Below are positions 32,319 through 41,659 of a DNA stretch of 64,000 bases, piece after piece. The notes below the pieces were generated by a model that was not told where the DNA came from, searched no databases, and was given only the letters and a program-made list of their open reading frames with translations. This DNA is from Limisphaerales bacterium (GTDB lineage Bacteria; Verrucomicrobiota; Verrucomicrobiia; Limisphaerales; JADLHS01): contig JBGAIM010000018.1 of assembly GCA_044225555.1 (NCBI GenBank), forward strand, positions 73,382 through 137,381, read 5' to 3'. The stretch's first letter is position 1. Every line of letters begins with the position of its first letter. A program made the translations under genes and the position numbers.

Positions 32319-32393
32319 GCGGTTGTGATTTAACAGCCAGAATACCTCCCCGCCACGGAGGACGTCCGGGTGCGATTCCCGGCAACCGCACCA
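32319..32393 (+). tRNA. tRNA-like gene, anticodon GCC (Gly-type), non-canonical G55 T-loop
   Basis: Acceptor GCGGTTG/CAACCGC. Anticodon (AC) stem CCTCC/GGAGG, loop CCGCCAC (C33). T arm CCGGG-TGCGATT-CCCGG. A73 plus encoded CCA. 75 nt. Folded by eye. Confidence 0.55.
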
Positions 32394-32402
32394 TTCCATT
32401 CT

Positions 32403-32554
32403 CGATTTATGATTTGCGATTTACGATTTGCTGTGCGAATCGAACAGGCTGCGCGTCAGCACGCGGCCGAGTCTCCAAAACTCAGCTTACTCCGGGCAGC
32501 ACGGAGGCAGCCTGCCAAATCATAAATCGGAAATCGGAAATCATAAATTCATTT
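32403..32554. repeat. Inverted repeat built from 7-nt periodic units (GATTTNN x4 / AAATCNN x5) bracketing tRNA-like 32446..32517
   Basis: Left arm 32403-32430 is cgatttatgatttgcgatttacgatttg. Right arm 32518-32554 is aaatcataaatcggaaatcggaaatcataaattcattt. The arms are imperfectly complementary. Confidence 0.6.
32446..32517 (+). tRNA. tRNA-like gene, anticodon CCA (Trp-type), mini D-arm, GGCAGCA T-loop
   Basis: Acceptor AGGCTGC/GCAGCCT (A1-T72). D hairpin GCGT-CAGC-ACGC. AC loop CTCCAAA. T arm CTCCG-GGCAGCA-CGGAG. G73 plus CCA. 72 nt. Confidence 0.55.
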
Positions 32555-32629
32555 GGGGTCGTGGCAGACAAGCAATGCACTTGCCCTGCAAGCAAGCTGA
32601 TGCGGGAGCGTTACCCGCCGACTCCACCA
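32555..32629 (+). tRNA. tRNA-like gene, anticodon TGC (Ala-type), AGCGTTA T-loop
   Basis: Acceptor GGGGTCG/CGACTCC with G3.T70 wobble. AC stem CTTGC/GCAAG, loop CCTGCAA (C33). T arm GCGGG-AGCGTTA-CCCGC. A73 plus CCA. 75 nt. Confidence 0.6.
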
Positions 32630-32637
32630 TTTCACTT

Positions 32638-32710
32638 TGCGGGGAGTATGAGATTCAGGCGAGCCTCATAAGCTCTGCCTTCGTGGGCGCAACTCCCACC
32701 CCCGCTACCA
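32638..32710 (+). tRNA. tRNA-like gene, anticodon CAT (Met-type, 1-72 mismatch)
   Basis: Acceptor TGCGGGG/CCCCGCT (positions 2-7 paired, T1xT72 mismatch). AC loop CTCATAA. T arm GTGGG-CGCAACT-CCCAC. A73 plus CCA. D region reduced (TGA-GAT-TCA). Confidence 0.5.
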
Positions 32711-32731
32711 CTACTTGCGTAGGGCCACAAA

Positions 32732-32821
32732 GGGAAGTGATCCAGTTGCCCGACTGTAAATCGGGTGTCGCAAAACAAAACTGGAAGTGACGAACTGGAG
32801 CGTTACCAGCACTTCCCACCA
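32732..32821 (+). tRNA. tRNA-like gene, anticodon GTA (Tyr-type), long extra region
   Basis: Acceptor GGGAAGT/ACTTCCC. AC stem CCCGA/TCGGG, loop CTGTAAA. 28-nt extra region in which CTGGA can pair with TCCAG at positions 10-14. T arm ACTGG-AGCGTTA-CCAGC. A73 plus CCA. 90 nt. Confidence 0.5.
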
Positions 32822-32844
32822 GCCTTAGCAAGGCATGCCATCAT

Positions 32845-32919
32845 GCTCTCGTAGCTGAATAGAAAAGCAACCCGTTGTCTGCGGGAAGAGTGTGAGTGCA
32901 AGTCTCACCGGGAGCGCCA
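32845..32919 (+). tRNA. tRNA-like gene, anticodon GTC (Asp-type), G55 T-loop
   Basis: Acceptor GCTCTCG/CGGGAGC. D arm GCT-GAATAGAAA-AGC. AC stem CCCG/CGGG, loop TTGTCTG (pyrimidine at 37, atypical). T arm GTGAG-TGCAAGT-CTCAC. G73 plus CCA. 75 nt. Confidence 0.5.
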
Positions 32920-33013
32920 ATTTAAAATCTCACCGCGCCGCCGTGTCCCAAGGTTTTCGGCAGCGCGATTCTCCACTCCGACGTTCGATTCAATCGTTCG
33001 GCGTCCATTTCAT

Positions 33014-33152
33014 CGGAGCGTAGCTCAGTCTTTGGAGCGCGCGGCTTGGGCCCGCGAGGTCGCAGGTGATTACAATTCGCGATAGCGAACAGATCAATTT
33101 GGGGAACCCATCTTGTAAGGCTTGGGAAGCCCAAATCCTGCCGTTCCGACCA
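33014..33152 (+). tRNA. tRNA-like gene, anticodon TGG (Pro-type), with a 63-nt insertion inside the T-loop
   Basis: Acceptor CGGAGCG/CGTTCCG (C1-G72). D arm GCTC-AGTCTTTG-GAGC. AC stem CGCGG/CCGCG, loop CTTGGGC. T stem GCAGG(33062-66)/CCTGC(33137-41) with loop TG^CAAAT interrupted by 33069-33131. A73 plus CCA. Confidence 0.5.
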
Positions 33153-33162
33153 TTTTCAAAAC

Positions 33163-33239
33163 GCTGCCGTGGCCGAATCATTCAGGCATCCGTCTTCTAA
33201 GCGGACTTCATGCAGGTGGAAATCCTGCCGGCAGCGCCA
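33163..33239 (+). tRNA. tRNA-like gene, anticodon TCT (Arg-type)
   Basis: Acceptor GCTGCCG/CGGCAGC. D arm GCC-GAATCATTCA-GGC. AC stem TCCGT/GCGGA, loop CTTCTAA. T arm GCAGG-TGGAAAT-CCTGC. G73 plus CCA. 77 nt. Confidence 0.6.
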
Positions 33240-33243
33240 ATCT

Positions 33244-33337
33244 GTTGGTTAAAAGTTGAAGGTTACAAGTTGCAGGTTTAATTGCGCGCGCGCAGATGCG
33301 TTCCAACCTGCAACCTTCAACCGACAACTTGCAACCC
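33244..33337. repeat. Inverted repeat built from 7-nt periodic units (GTTGNAG / CTNCAAC type)
   Basis: Left arm gttggttaaaagttgaaggttacaagttgcaggtt. Right arm aacctgcaaccttcaaccgacaacttgcaaccc. GC-rich central loop taattgcgcgcgcgcagatgcgttcc. Confidence 0.6.
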
Positions 33338-33343
33338 TCGAAA

Positions 33344-33418
33344 TGCCAGGTGGTGTCAAAGTAGCACGGCGGCCTGTTAAGCCGTTCGGTGTTGGTGCGA
33401 GTCCAACCCTGGCAGCCA
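33344..33418 (+). tRNA. tRNA-like gene, anticodon GTT (Asn-type)
   Basis: Acceptor TGCCAGG/CCTGGCA (T1-A72). D arm GTG-TCAAAGTAG-CAC. AC stem GCGGC/GCCGT, loop CTGTTAA. T arm GTTGG-TGCGAGT-CCAAC. G73 plus CCA. 75 nt. Confidence 0.65.
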
Positions 33419-33424
33419 ATTTTA

Positions 33425-40849: not shown

Positions 40850-40870
40850 GCCTTTGCAGGCGGCCACCAT

Positions 40871-40962
40871 GCGCGCGTAGTTCAAAGAGAACCGGCGAGC
40901 TTATACCTCGCATCGCACTAGATGAGTGCCGAGTTCCGGAGCGTTACCGGACGCGCGCACCA
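40871..40962 (+). tRNA. tRNA-like gene, anticodon TAT (Ile-type?) with a long extra arm
   Basis: Acceptor GCGCGCG/CGCGCGC. D arm GTTC-AAAGA-GAAC. AC stem GCGAG/CTCGC, loop CTTATAC. Extra arm GCAC-TAGATGA-GTGC. T arm TCCGG-AGCGTTA-CCGGA. A73 plus CCA. 92 nt. Identity uncertain. Confidence 0.45.
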
Positions 40963-40969
40963 ATTCATC

Positions 40970-41045
40970 GCCCTCAAAGCATTGGTAGCGATGCCATCGC
41001 TCGGTAAGCGAATGCAACCCGGTGCAACTCCGGGTGAGGGCTCCA
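40970..41045 (+). tRNA. tRNA-like gene, anticodon GGT (Thr-type)
   Basis: Acceptor GCCCTCA/TGAGGGC. D arm GCAT-TGGTAGCG-ATGC. AC stem TCGC/GCGA, loop TCGGTAA (C33). T arm CCCGG-TGCAACT-CCGGG. T73 plus CCA. 76 nt. Confidence 0.55.
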
Positions 41046-41056
41046 TTCTCAAACAT

Positions 41057-41125
41057 CGCAGTCGAGCCAGTGCTCAGGTGGGTTTCATAAGCCCGCCGGG
41101 TCCGGGGCGGCACCGGAGACTGCGA
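41057..41125 (+). tRNA. tRNA-like gene, anticodon CAT (Met-type 2), mini D-arm, no encoded CCA
   Basis: Acceptor CGCAGTC/GACTGCG. D hairpin GAGC-CAGT-GCTC. AC stem TGGGT/GCCCG, loop TTCATAA. T arm TCCGG-GGCGGCA-CCGGA. A73 is followed by GGC. Confidence 0.5.
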
Positions 41126-41148
41126 GGCATAGGCATGCCGGCCACCTC

Positions 41149-41220
41149 GCCTCCATGCAGCAGCCTGCGGATTTCTTTTGTAAAGAATTCCTGCCGGAGC
41201 ATCACCGGCTGGAGGCTCCA
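41149..41220 (+). tRNA. tRNA-like gene, anticodon TGT (Thr-type), mini D-arm
   Basis: Acceptor GCCTCCA/TGGAGGC. D hairpin CAG-CAGC-CTG. AC stem TTTCT/AGAAT (extendable to 8 pairs), loop TTTGTAA. T arm GCCGG-AGCATCA-CCGGC. T73 plus CCA. 72 nt. Confidence 0.55.
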
Positions 41221-41237
41221 TTTTCATTTCCGTTTTC

Positions 41238-41321
41238 GGGCGAGTGGTTCAGAGGGAATAGCAGACCCCGCAGATCGAGAGTCTGCGAGCCTTGGAGGTG
41301 CAAGTCCTCTCTCGCCCACCA
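41238..41321 (+). tRNA. tRNA-like gene, anticodon GAG (Leu-type subfamily)
   Basis: Acceptor GGGCGAG/CTCGCCC. D arm GGG-AATAGCAGA-CCC. AC stem GCAGA/TCTGC, loop TCGAGAG (C33). Variable GAGCCTT. T arm GGAGG-TGCAAGT-CCTCT. A73 plus CCA. 84 nt. Confidence 0.55.
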
Positions 41322-41325
41322 TTTC

Positions 41326-41399
41326 GGCCTGCAAGCATTAAAGTGATGCAACGGACTTTTAATCCGTAGAACAGGGAGCGTTACCCTGGCGGGCCACCA
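41326..41399 (+). tRNA. tRNA-like gene, anticodon TTT (Lys-type)
   Basis: Acceptor GGCCTGC/GCGGGCC. D arm GCAT-TAAAGTG-ATGC. AC stem ACGGA/TCCGT, loop CTTTTAA. T arm CAGGG-AGCGTTA-CCCTG. A73 plus CCA. 74 nt. Confidence 0.65.
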
Positions 41400-41405
41400 A
41401 TTCAT

Positions 41406-41479
41406 TGCCTTGTGGTGTAACAGCAGCATGCCGGGTTTTGACCCCGACGGTCTTGGTGCGAATCCAAGCGAGGCAGCCA
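41406..41479 (+). tRNA. tRNA-like gene, anticodon TTG (Gln-type)
   Basis: Acceptor TGCCTTG/CGAGGCA (T1-A72). D arm GTG-TAACAGCAG-CAT. AC stem CGGG/CCCG, loop TTTTGAC. T arm CTTGG-TGCGAAT-CCAAG. G73 plus CCA. 74 nt. Confidence 0.6.
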
Positions 41480-41502
41480 ATTTTGGCAGGTCGAGCTTCG
41501 AC

Positions 41503-41576
41503 CGCCCGGTGGTGAAATAGAATCACGTCTGGCCTACACCCAGAAATCGAGGGGGCAGAACCTTCCCGGGCGACCA
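41503..41576 (+). tRNA. tRNA-like gene, anticodon TAC (Val-type)
   Basis: Acceptor CGCCCGG/CCGGGCG. D arm GTG-AAATAGAAT-CAC. AC stem TCTGG/CCAGA, loop CCTACAC (C33). T arm GAGGG-GGCAGAA-CCTTC. A73 plus CCA. 74 nt. Confidence 0.55.
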
Positions 41577-41584
41577 CTTTCAAT

Positions 41585-41659
41585 TGCCTCGTTGCATAAT
41601 CAGGAGTGCACCGGTCTCTGACACCGGAGGACCTGGAGCAAAACCAGGCGAGGCAGCCA
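41585..41659 (+). tRNA. tRNA-like gene, anticodon CTG (Gln-type)
   Basis: Acceptor TGCCTCG/CGAGGCA (T1-A72). D arm GCA-TAATCAGGAG-TGC. AC stem CCGGT/ACCGG, loop CTCTGAC. T arm CCTGG-AGCAAAA-CCAGG. G73 plus CCA. 75 nt. Confidence 0.6.

Follow-up and report, generated by a model that had tools for sequence, protein, structure and literature searches.

We analyzed a 64,000-nucleotide (nt) stretch of DNA from a Limisphaerales bacterium of the phylum Verrucomicrobiota (GenBank assembly GCA_044225555.1, contig JBGAIM010000018.1, positions 73,382 to 137,381 of the forward strand), hereafter called the window, which carries a dense set of transfer RNA (tRNA) genes with G at position 55 of the T-loop. 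Our hand-curated list for the 64-kb window comprises 32 tRNA genes, all on the plus strand, with 31 different anticodons, and CAT is the sole duplicate, as an initial annotation of this DNA had already stated. That annotation was also right that the set is real and lies entirely on the plus strand, as indicated by ARAGORN, the Rfam model RF00005, and our own scans, but it had counted 31 genes and 19 of 20 amino acids, without Cys. A tRNA-Cys-GCA gene is present at 39341-39415, and therefore all 20 amino acids are represented by the 32 genes. The genes are as follows, with positions counted from the first nucleotide of the window.

32319-34161, +, array A, 15 genes:
32319-32393, +, tRNA-Gly-GCC
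32446-32517, +, tRNA-Trp-CCA
32555-32629, +, tRNA-Ala-TGC
32638-32710, +, initiator-like tRNA-Met-CAT
32732-32821, +, tRNA-Tyr-GTA
32845-32919, +, tRNA-Asp-GTC
33014-33152, +, tRNA-Pro-TGG
33163-33239, +, tRNA-Arg-TCT
33344-33418, +, tRNA-Asn-GTT
33518-33607, +, tRNA-Ser-CGA
33625-33698, +, tRNA-Ile-GAT
33732-33806, +, tRNA-Phe-GAA
33813-33890, +, tRNA-Glu-TTC
33911-33988, +, tRNA-Arg-GCG
34086-34161, +, tRNA-Thr-CGT
35503-35577, +, tRNA-His
39341-39415, +, tRNA-Cys-GCA, with U73 and a TGCGACT T-loop
40240-41659, +, array B, 15 genes:
40240-40314, +, tRNA-Lys-CTT
40320-40395, +, tRNA-Arg-TCG
40402-40485, +, tRNA-Leu-CAG
40491-40575, +, tRNA-Leu-TAA
40574-40657, +, tRNA-Leu-CAA
40760-40849, +, tRNA-Ser-GCT
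40871-40962, +, tRNA-Ile-TAT, with a long variable arm
40970-41045, +, tRNA-Thr-GGT
41057-41125, +, second tRNA-Met-CAT (Met-2)
41149-41220, +, tRNA-Thr-TGT
41238-41321, +, tRNA-Leu-GAG
41326-41399, +, tRNA-Lys-TTT
41406-41479, +, tRNA-Gln-TTG
41503-41576, +, tRNA-Val-TAC
41585-41659, +, tRNA-Gln-CTG

The overall density is 3.4 genes per kb (32 genes in 9.34 kb); each large block has 15 genes, within 1.84 kb in array A and within 1.42 kb in array B. The census combined ARAGORN, RF00005, and our own cloverleaf and T-arm scans. ARAGORN with default settings called 12 tRNAs, all on the plus strand, between 32319 and 41479, and with relaxed settings it recovered 23 (ps90) to about 27 (ps80) of the genes in the initial annotation. 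RF00005 reached its gathering score at 18 places, namely, 15 array members and three sites in a Y RNA region described below; with laxer filters three more array members passed, giving 18 of the 32 genes with scores of 31.7 to 53.7 bits (gathering score, 29). A strict cloverleaf scan returned 13 plus-strand matches, all in the region, and two weak minus-strand matches across the 64 kb, and the T-arm scan (perfect 5-bp T-stem, 7-nt loop, pairing acceptor stem, and NCCA) found 26 genes with G55. Four genes were called by none of the tools: Trp at 32446-32517, Tyr at 32732-32821, Pro at 33014-33152, and Met-2 at 41057-41125. A cloverleaf folding was obtained for Trp and Met-2; these two and Tyr are kept in 13 to 22 related loci, Tyr with clear compensatory changes, and for Pro the relatives have an intact, uninterrupted Pro-TGG, called by ARAGORN, at the same array position.

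The set has the cloverleaf of ordinary tRNAs, i.e., a 7-bp acceptor stem, a 3- to 4-bp D-stem, 5-bp anticodon and T-stems, and a 7-nt anticodon loop, and the standard core is departed from by the class II members (Leu and Tyr), Trp, Met-2, and the initiator-like Met. Of the 32 genes, 29 encode N73-CCA. The three that do not are Met-2; Leu-TAA, in which the CC overlaps the following gene; and Cys, which ends in TCCC in the window and in TCCA in relatives. Extra isoacceptors occur in the relatives (Gly-TCC, Ser-TGA, Pro-CGG, Arg-CCT/CCG, Val-CAC, Glu-CTC, and Leu-TAG). The Ile tRNA with the rare UAU anticodon is 92 nt long, and it is kept with its long variable arm in relatives and in a phage locus (L101; loci other than the window are designated by L numbers).

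The canonical combination of T54, pseudouridine 55, and C56 with A58 is not what these genes encode, position 55 being G in all 32 of the window tRNAs and in 771 related genes. C56 is found in 29 of the 32, and Arg-TCT and Arg-TCG have G56. At position 54, 19 genes have T (Pro and the corrected Leu-TAA among them), eight have A, three have G, and one has C. A58 is confined to the TGC and TGG loop classes. Both the universal G55 and the 29 C56 residues had been read in the same way in the initial annotation. In the Rfam alignment, GGUGCGAUUCC is aligned with the consensus GGUUCgAaUCC in such a way that the G falls at position 55, indicating that G55 is not an alignment artefact. A realignment that restores U55 is ruled out, since the RF00005 alignments keep G at this position, and a GNRA tetraloop closed by a 54:59 pair was dropped because position 59 does not covary with position 54 (as in the loops TGCGATT and TGCAACT).

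The D-loop differs from the canonical G18-G19 as well. It had been described as lacking both residues, which holds for G18 but not for G19: the 7-nt D-loop has the register A14-N15-N16-A18-G19-N20-A21 (e.g., AACAGCA versus the canonical AAUGGUA), which implies that G18 was changed to A18 with G19 kept. GG is missing from 670 of 738 G55 tRNAs, which have the consensus A18-G19, and is present in 88 of 101 T55 tRNAs. Among unique G55 loops, 427 of 532 (80%) fit YGNRA, the commonest form being U54-G55-N56-R57-A58, and an AGCRU loop class accounts for 13%. As read from the gene sequences, these tRNAs have a YGNRA-type T-loop and A18 where ordinary tRNAs have U54-U55-C56-R-A58 and an intercalating G18. 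We infer that A18 is the intercalating partner of the G55 loop, which would make this a structurally coherent double change.

Several members have unusual cores. Trp (32446-32517) and Met-2 (41057-41125) combine a GGCRGCA T-loop with a 4-nt D-loop (CAGC), and the initiator-like Met (32638-32710) has a 3-nt D-loop with a CGCAACT T-loop; these constitute a third and a fourth elbow class. The array Leu tRNAs (40402-40657 and 41238-41321 in the window, and those of L001-L059) have no long variable arm and are 76 to 78 nt long and class-I-like in most relatives. In those of the window, position 8 is followed by a connector of 6 to 8 nt (GGUU or GGCU), for which AGCC in the short variable region is a possible pairing partner, and many Leu-GAG genes have C33 instead of U33. 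tRNA-Tyr-GTA (32732-32821) is without an ordinary D-arm; its 5' TCCRG pairs with CYGGA located 3' of the anticodon arm, and GTCR pairs with YGAC, so that the crossing helices, both backed by compensatory changes (22 loci), give a pseudoknot-like core. In tRNA-Pro-TGG, a 64-nt insertion directly after T54-G55 (about 33069-33132) splits the T-loop. Similar copies of the insertion are found in relatives (L065, 8239-8302; L002, 5065-5138; L045; and L004), which suggests a small element that is repeated or mobile, or else an intervening sequence, and uninterrupted Pro-TGG genes are found in L065, L060, and others.

Selection on structure was assessed using alignment A3, a gap-free set of 94 distinct 71-nt G55 tRNAs of 13 anticodon families that were chosen for good pairing. 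G55, G52, G53, C61, C62, and A37 are invariant in this set, and A18, G19, and C56 are at least 90% conserved. Nineteen of the 21 stem pairs vary, each with changes on both sides, and the other two never vary; 96.7% of the cells are paired, a value that is partly circular because the set was chosen for pairing. Tertiary pairs were outside this selection. Positions 19 and 56 are paired in 94 of 94 sequences (G-C in 92 and U-A in 2), and 54:58 is U-A in 59, A-U in 23, and another combination in 12, in agreement with the flip of this pair pointed out in the initial annotation. Besides, the D-loop has AG in 558 of 623 tRNAs when position 56 is C, and AT or AC when it is A or G, and in the Arg-TCG family 19:56 is U-A in 14, U.G in 12, and C-G in 6, with one exception. 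The covariation of 19:56 argues that the elbow forms; to our knowledge, a covarying G19:C56 pair is hardly ever met in ordinary tRNAs.

The predicted synthetase identity elements are intact across the set, apart from tRNA-His, which has no G-1:C73. G3:U70 is present in Ala, U1:A72 and G73 in Gln and Asn, and C1:G72 and A73 in Pro, and the other discriminators are U73 in Cys, G73 in Trp, Asp, Glu, and Ser, and A73 in Leu, Tyr, Phe, Lys, Ile, and Val; the initiator-like Met is mismatched at 1:72, as is usual for initiators. Covariation together with intact identity elements is not compatible with pseudogene decay, and structure-preserving substitutions, the absence of which the initial annotation had named as a sign of decay, are found in about 60 genomes. 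We therefore consider it very probable, from these patterns of substitution, that the genes encode functional tRNAs.

Relatives of the locus were collected by a protein search with Rsr, the Ro60 orthologue encoded between the arrays, with one genome per species and with the taxonomy labels of metagenome-assembled genomes (MAGs) as deposited, which gave 80 loci; their tRNA census used relaxed ARAGORN and our own T-arm parse. About 60 of the 80 loci are Verrucomicrobiota (Limisphaerales, Pedosphaera, and subdivision 3) with the same island, and the few islands binned under other names are probably binning errors. Nucleotide similarity of the relatives to the window extends from about 31650 to about 42390 and ends there. 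The upstream flanks differ in 22 of the 22 loci compared, and 25 downstream flanks fall into 15 groups; the proteins of the island, Rsr and an HNH nuclease, are 62 to 91% identical across the relatives.

In the related loci, 771 G55 tRNAs and 114 T55 tRNAs were counted, the latter consisting of four groups: arrays of Chloroflexia and of a Myxococcales MAG, Y RNA domains, the initiator in a few arrays, and housekeeping tRNAs. Just outside the islands of six related MAGs, seven tRNAs have a GG D-loop and a TTCRANY T-loop (Arg-ACG, Arg-CCG twice, His-GTG, Leu-TAG, Gly-CCC, and Phe-GAA), and the array members are 55 to 75% identical to these flanking canonical isoacceptors. The ordinary tRNAs of the lineage thus appear to be canonical, and the A18/G55 elbow is a trait of the island and not of the lineage, an alternative that the initial annotation had left to be checked; the canonical loops of the Y RNAs agree with this. 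In other phyla, rsr is flanked by arrays of up to about 27 tRNA genes with canonical T-loops (L061-L069 and L072, Chloroflexia; L062, the Myxococcales MAG), and L062 is a mix of 19 canonical and three G55 tRNAs. The association of Rsr with tRNA arrays is thus broader than the G55 variant.

The conserved island of these soil Verrucomicrobia spans about 31649-42365 and consists of leader RNAs, 16 tRNAs, six Y RNAs, rsr, tRNA-Cys, 15 tRNAs, and the HNH nuclease gene. Apart from the tRNA genes listed above, the following features lie in this region.

31649-31980, +, leader 1, non-coding, 67 to 87% nucleotide identity over about 28 related loci, with no consistent open reading frame (ORF)
31981-32318, +, leader 2, structured (alignment A2, RNAalifold)
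34256-35320, -, lineage-specific insert encoding a TIGR03067-domain protein (NCBIfam, 7e-31), not part of the conserved island
35584-36815, +, six tandem YrlA-like Y RNA modules, with 5' motifs at 35587, 35902, 36019, 36158, 36296, and 36729
36853-38553, +, rsr, Ro60 orthologue with TROVE and vWA domains (Pfam TROVE, 3e-47; vWA_Ro60, 3e-60)
38639-39292, +, ORF of 217 amino acids with no assigned function, in seven related loci
39431-40162, -, lineage-specific insert encoding a DUF1579 protein (Pfam, 4e-31), absent from related loci
40161-40233, +, tRNA-like element without D-arm and without CCA, opening array B
41781-42365, +, HNH nuclease of 194 amino acids, closing the island (Pfam HNH_4; phrog_16726 over its full length; PDB 4h9d)

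At the head of the island, leader 1 contains a promoter-like TTGACT-N17-TGnTAnnnT (about 31715-31745), inferred from alignment A2, followed by about 240 nt that resemble a small RNA and are closed off by a strong intrinsic terminator (31944-31971 plus TTTTTTGTT), making it a candidate small RNA. In leader 2, a core of about 110 nt (about 32160-32275) is nearly invariant in 23 genomes whose Rsr proteins differ by 10 to 25%, one hairpin shows compensatory changes (GGTAGC/GCTAGC, GGGATC/GATCACC, and GGCGGC/GCCGGC), and a GC-rich terminator-like hairpin (32276-32310), 8 nt away from the first tRNA, is followed by TTTCAATTTCC; the leader ends directly before that tRNA. The core motif occurs in 18 loci, always on the plus strand and upstream of the array, and was absent from the viral loci searched. 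Leader 2 looks like a riboswitch or attenuator, and a conserved leader with terminator-like hairpins is compatible with regulation of the array; 31649-32318 had no Rfam match at E ≤ 10 (RNase P, tmRNA, riboswitches, and GOLLD/ROOL included). Protein coding in 31649-32318 is ruled out by the lack of a consistent ORF and by the near invariance of the 110-nt core at the nucleotide level.

The spacers of array A (32398-32548, 33247-33339, 33424-33512, and 33991-34079) contain A/T-rich inverted repeats with arms of 25 to 32 nt, of the GATTTACGATTT / AAATCGTAAATC type, which may be processing stems; the pair bracketing tRNA-Trp would lengthen its acceptor stem by about 27 bp. Directly after the encoded CCA of nearly every tRNA (from 32394 on) stands ATTT(C/T), and TTTCAATTTC is also found 3' of the hairpins preceding tRNA-Gly and tRNA-Cys, so that the A/T-rich trailer motif may be a shared processing signal. 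The hairpin 5' of tRNA-Cys is terminator-like (39298-39327) and followed by CTTTCAATTT.

The Y RNA modules open with GGGYCG-N-GG(A)TTATC, and most contain a tRNA-like domain; one tRNA-like element lies at 35819-35893. These domains keep canonical GGTTCGAxTCC T-loops and GG D-loops, and the RF00005 matches in this region are at 35631, 35819, and 36228. The Rfam YrlA model (RF02553) scores 38.7 and 34.2 bits here, against a gathering score of 69. In the bacterial loci the Ro-stem motif is strongly strand biased (271 on the plus strand versus 12 on the minus strand). The downstream rsr product scores 504 bits with the NCBIfam Rsr equivalog, below its cutoff of 900. Its longer ORF starts at 36592 and would overlap Y RNA 6; the true start is therefore probably ATG 36853, which is preceded by a GAGAGGG Shine-Dalgarno-like sequence. 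The tRNA-like element at 40161-40233 has an 11-bp terminal helix, an anticodon-like hairpin (loop TTCACAG), and a canonical GGCGG-TTCAACT-CCGCC T-arm; it scores 23 bits with Rfam tRNA-Sec (sub-threshold), is called by ARAGORN at ps80, and shows compensatory changes in 13 related loci. No homologue of the TIGR03067 insert was found in any related locus.

The HNH protein shows weak similarity to Cas9-HNH, IscB, and PtuB, and its sequence places the domain with the Cas9/IscB-type HNH DNA nucleases; PADLOC assigned the island proteins to no defence system beyond this weak PtuB/Cas9-HNH similarity of the HNH protein. The gene is at the same position in at least 39 Verrucomicrobial loci, two Chloroflexia loci (L063 and L072), and several phage loci, and there are 6370 metagenomic homologues, of which the 120 best listed are all 86 to 92% identical.

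Homologous modules were also found in phages. Among 80 IMG/VR contigs encoding Rsr homologues (41 to 56% identity), many have tRNA arrays beside rsr, with 295 T55 and 43 G55 tRNAs. The initial annotation knew of no full decoder set with such an elbow in bacterial, organellar, or phage arrays; as these 43 genes show, the elbow does occur in phage arrays, and the window is thus one member of a large, apparently undescribed class. The G55 genes stand in mosaic arrays (12 of 17 in L103, 8 of 21 in L110, 9 of 17 in L142, and 5 of 7 in L101), and within one phage array G55 goes with AG-type D-loops and T55 with GG. Indeed, among unique viral tRNAs, GG is missing in 31 of 35 with G55 and present in 191 of 206 with U55 (p=1.8e-23). 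L103 encodes a tubulin-like protein and phage-type endonucleases, implying that it is a genuine large phage. HNH homologues (39 to 49% identity in the best cases) are near the arrays in L098, L099, L101, L103, L138, and L142, and in L101, L103, and L142 the gene lies just 3' of the last called tRNA, as in the window; the order Gln-CTG-then-HNH is common to L101 and the window. Some window tRNAs are 81 to 85% identical to phage tRNAs of the same loop class.

RNA-repair genes accompany many of the bacterial relatives. RtcB is encoded within 10 kb of rsr in 30 of the 80 bacterial loci, and the genes directly after HNH are shared in 11 related loci (L009 and 10 others); in L009 (15317-19535) they encode RtcB, an R2K ATP-grasp protein, an RNA ligase (PF09414), and a kinase-phosphoesterase with HD and AAA_33 domains. 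No RtcB was found in the 64-kb window, the L009-type repair cassette is missing from its copy of the island, and no RtcR or sigma-54 signature was seen in the window.

We tentatively propose, with a probability of roughly 0.45, that the island provides a functional replacement tRNA pool in a tRNA-damage-response module and that its YGNRA-type loop lets the tRNAs escape enzymes that read U55. The conserved leader would give rise to polycistronic precursors of the island tRNAs, which would be processed at the A/U-rich trailers after the encoded CCA, and the G55 tRNAs would then be charged by host synthetases, as suggested by their intact identity elements, and used on the ribosome. G55 would remove the U54-U55-C56 sequence read by T-loop-specific enzymes; the main enzymes evaded would be nucleases of defence systems or toxins that cut the T-loop, with the prokaryotic Schlafen Cash as an example, and TruB would also be affected. 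Cash, which is activated by type III CRISPR signalling, cuts tRNAs mainly in the T-loop, 5' of U55 in a UUC motif, and single mutations of U54 or U55 abolish its cleavage (PMC13462974). Since Cash needs U54 and U55, the G55 tRNAs should be immune. While canonical tRNAs are cleaved, the G55 set would survive, and translation would continue or restart; Rsr and the Y RNAs would clear damaged RNA, and in the relatives RtcB, RNA ligase, and the kinase-phosphoesterase would repair it. In large phages, the same elbow would evade host tRNA-targeting immunity.

A number of observations weigh against this proposal. No gene for a T-loop nuclease was found in the 64-kb window or in the island flanks examined, and G55 offers no protection against cleavage of the anticodon loop, the site attacked by most known tRNA-targeting nucleases. 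The modules of Chloroflexia, the Myxococcales MAG, and most phages use U55 tRNAs, and thus G55 is not required for the module to work. The Y RNAs retain canonical T-loops, as does the initiator tRNA in the arrays L052, L058, L101, L103, and L142. It could also be that G55 is invariant through epistatic lock-in with A18 and is not itself under selection. As a replacement pool, the window set is also imperfect: wobble coverage of the 61 codons is incomplete (e.g., there is no Gly-UCC/CCC and no Ser-UGA/GGA), and several members look impaired: the T-loop of Pro is interrupted by the insertion, CCA is not encoded in Met-2 or Cys, and His lacks G-1:C73 and has mismatches in its acceptor stem.

The main rival is a neutral or historical variant, which we consider possible, if somewhat unlikely: the tRNAs would be an ordinary supply of the L-array type under stress, and A18/G55, an elbow that works just as well, would have had a single origin in a phage or island lineage, spread by gene conversion of D- and T-arms, and become locked in. 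T-arms are often identical among isoacceptors in one array (GCAGG-TGCAAGT-CCTGC), which fits homogenization; phage arrays hold canonical and G55 tRNAs together, U55 suffices in the sister modules, and the YGNRA T-loop with an intercalating A is a generic stable RNA motif. However, G55 stays invariant while positions 54, 56, 57, 59, and 60 diversify, across at least six loop classes and all isoacceptor families; the initiator and Y RNAs of the same locus resist the change, which looks like selection on particular molecules; and the island persists in about 60 species in differing genomic contexts. A tRNA-pool swap, in which the elbow marks self, is in our view improbable. Here a T-loop nuclease, either a Cash-like Schlafen elsewhere in the genome or conceivably the conserved HNH protein, would destroy canonical tRNAs of host and phage while the G55 set is immune, Rsr, Y RNA, and polynucleotide phosphorylase (PNPase) would clear the debris, RtcB-type ligases would reset the system, and phages would have captured the module and turned it against hosts. 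Low probability is likewise given to an insulating role, by which G55/A18 would make TruB, TrmA, another elbow reader, or the Rsr/Y RNA/PNPase complex ignore or specifically handle these tRNAs. U55 is the target of TruB, and YrlA is reportedly a substrate of tRNA enzymes, both of which would suit such a role, as does the fact that Y RNA domains a few hundred bases away keep GG and TTCGA whereas all 32 tRNAs have lost them, a contrast that would be the very purpose of the arrangement; loss of pseudouridine 55 alone, on the other hand, has mild effects in model bacteria, and the Chloroflexia and phage modules pair Rsr with canonical tRNAs. That YrlA mimics tRNA, as is reported (PMC4201824), also favors insulation.

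Very unlikely, in our opinion, are decoys or sponges that titrate tRNA-binding toxins or regulators, or non-ribosomal substrates that feed aminoacyl-tRNA-dependent chemistry. A sponge role was suggested for operonic tRNAs in Anabaena (PMC8421152), and the odd cores could be taken as a sign of one (Leu without a long variable arm, the pseudoknot-like Tyr, the 3- to 4-nt D-loops of Trp, Met-2, and the initiator-like Met, and C33 in Leu-GAG). Yet a decoy for a T-loop reader should retain the canonical T-loop, and the conserved anticodon diversity for 20 amino acids, the invariant R37 (A37 in alignment A3), and the conserved synthetase identity elements and encoded CCA point to decoding. That the arrays are pseudo-tRNAs, a decaying remnant of a phage tRNA cluster, is largely refuted and retains only a very small probability; the 12 of 32 genes called by default ARAGORN, the interrupted Pro, the CCA lost in Met-2 and Cys, and the related modules in phages would fit such decay, but the arrays are preserved in about 60 species, compensatory substitution is seen at 19:56 and at each stem pair that varies, the island has no phage structural genes, and its HNH and Rsr proteins are still 62 to 91% identical. 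Scarcely credible is a lineage-wide trait, i.e., a G55 elbow in all tRNAs of these bacteria. The evidence for canonical tRNAs does come from related MAGs and not from the genome of the window, but the seven canonical tRNAs outside the islands of six MAGs are well formed and include His-GTG and Phe-GAA, which are also in the arrays, and the window's own Y RNAs have canonical elbows.

Among known systems, the L-arrays are close to the island. They are defined by a minimum of 20 tRNA genes and a minimum density of 2 per kb (PMC4758250), and the L-array survey places Verrucomicrobia among the phyla that carry them; the window set has 32 genes at 3.4 per kb. Like the island, L-arrays are dense groups of tens of tRNA genes for most or all amino acids, redundant with housekeeping genes, with a patchy, mobile distribution and RNA-processing or repair neighbors, and the Anabaena L-array is co-regulated with rtcB under translational stress (PMC8421152). 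The patchy or horizontal distribution of the island is seen in its upstream flanks, which differ in 22 of 22 loci, and in the modules of Chloroflexia, the Myxococcales MAG, and phages. Unlike L-arrays, the present arrays lie on either side of rsr and the Y RNAs, with a conserved HNH gene at the end. For the Anabaena array, stress induction was shown. A text search of the main L-array papers found no description of an altered T-loop/D-loop elbow. Jumbo phages combine tRNAs with RtcB, Rnl, PNK, and TROVE proteins against RNase effectors (PMC7824862), and homologous Rsr/tRNA/HNH modules are found in IMG/VR. The island differs from those clusters in lying on a bacterial chromosome without phage structural genes. 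Known evasion by phage tRNAs works through changes in the anticodon loop, whereas the change in the island is in the elbow (positions 18 and 55). The rsr-yrlBA-rtcBA operon (PMC4201824; PMC7790460) likewise has tRNA-mimicking Y RNAs 5' of a Ro60 orthologue, a link to RtcB, which many relatives of the island share, and a tie to tRNA damage, but the island has six tandem Y RNAs, which score below the YrlA gathering score, and 32 tRNA genes, and the window is without RtcB.

The elbow itself has counterparts in other RNAs. T-loops of FMN and cobalamin riboswitches are UGNRA (88.7%) or CGNRA (10.9%) followed by two bulged bases, the base intercalating between their positions 4 and 5 is almost always adenosine, and tRNA is the class with U at T-loop position 2 (bioRxiv 10.1101/2022.12.26.521914). 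The island loops resemble the YGNRA motifs of riboswitches, rRNA, and RNase P in having (U/C)-G-N-R-A with two bulged nucleotides and an adenine partner, and the GGNRG class resembles "rRNA GGAAG"; those motifs, however, dock onto receptors in other RNAs, whereas the island uses the class inside tRNAs, and its AGCRU class is outside the consensus. Mitochondrial and other tRNAs lose G18G19 or the TΨC sequence and yet function, but mitochondrial elbows are degenerate and need dedicated factors. The island, by contrast, keeps one precise alternative (A18/G55 with 19:56 paired) throughout the set, beside a canonical set.

tRNA arrays, Rsr/Y RNA/RtcB modules, and phage sets of tRNA and repair genes are already described, whereas our literature search found no report of A18/G55 tRNA sets, of tRNA arrays in rsr loci, or of elbow variation in phage tRNAs. 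Few nucleotides in biology are as strongly conserved as G18 and U55, and here a whole decoder set has swapped both in one precise, compensated way, an arrangement that recurs in dozens of species and in phages. If functional, this would be a second natural solution of the elbow, with bearing on recognition by RNase P, the CCA-adding enzyme, EF-Tu, the ribosome, and T-boxes, and it could aid the design of orthogonal tRNAs. It would further suggest that the elbow may have been the site of an arms race driven by T-loop-cleaving immune nucleases (Schlafen/Cash, described in 2026), comparable to the one that anticodon nucleases set off at the anticodon loop. Ro60/Y RNA biology in bacteria would gain a concrete partner, namely, replacement tRNAs. 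Besides, default gene finders miss more than half of these genes, implying that environmental genomes may be under-annotated in this respect.

The rest of the window is ordinary chromosome, encoding NorB, OmpA, glycoside hydrolases, histidine kinases, and a radical-SAM enzyme; a prophage reading of the window is ruled out by these chromosomal flanks and by the absence of phage structural genes from the island. Unrelated to the tRNA finding, two large proteins encoded on the minus strand at 15549-18032 and 20003-22711 match PF18582, the middle domain of hydrazine synthase alpha.

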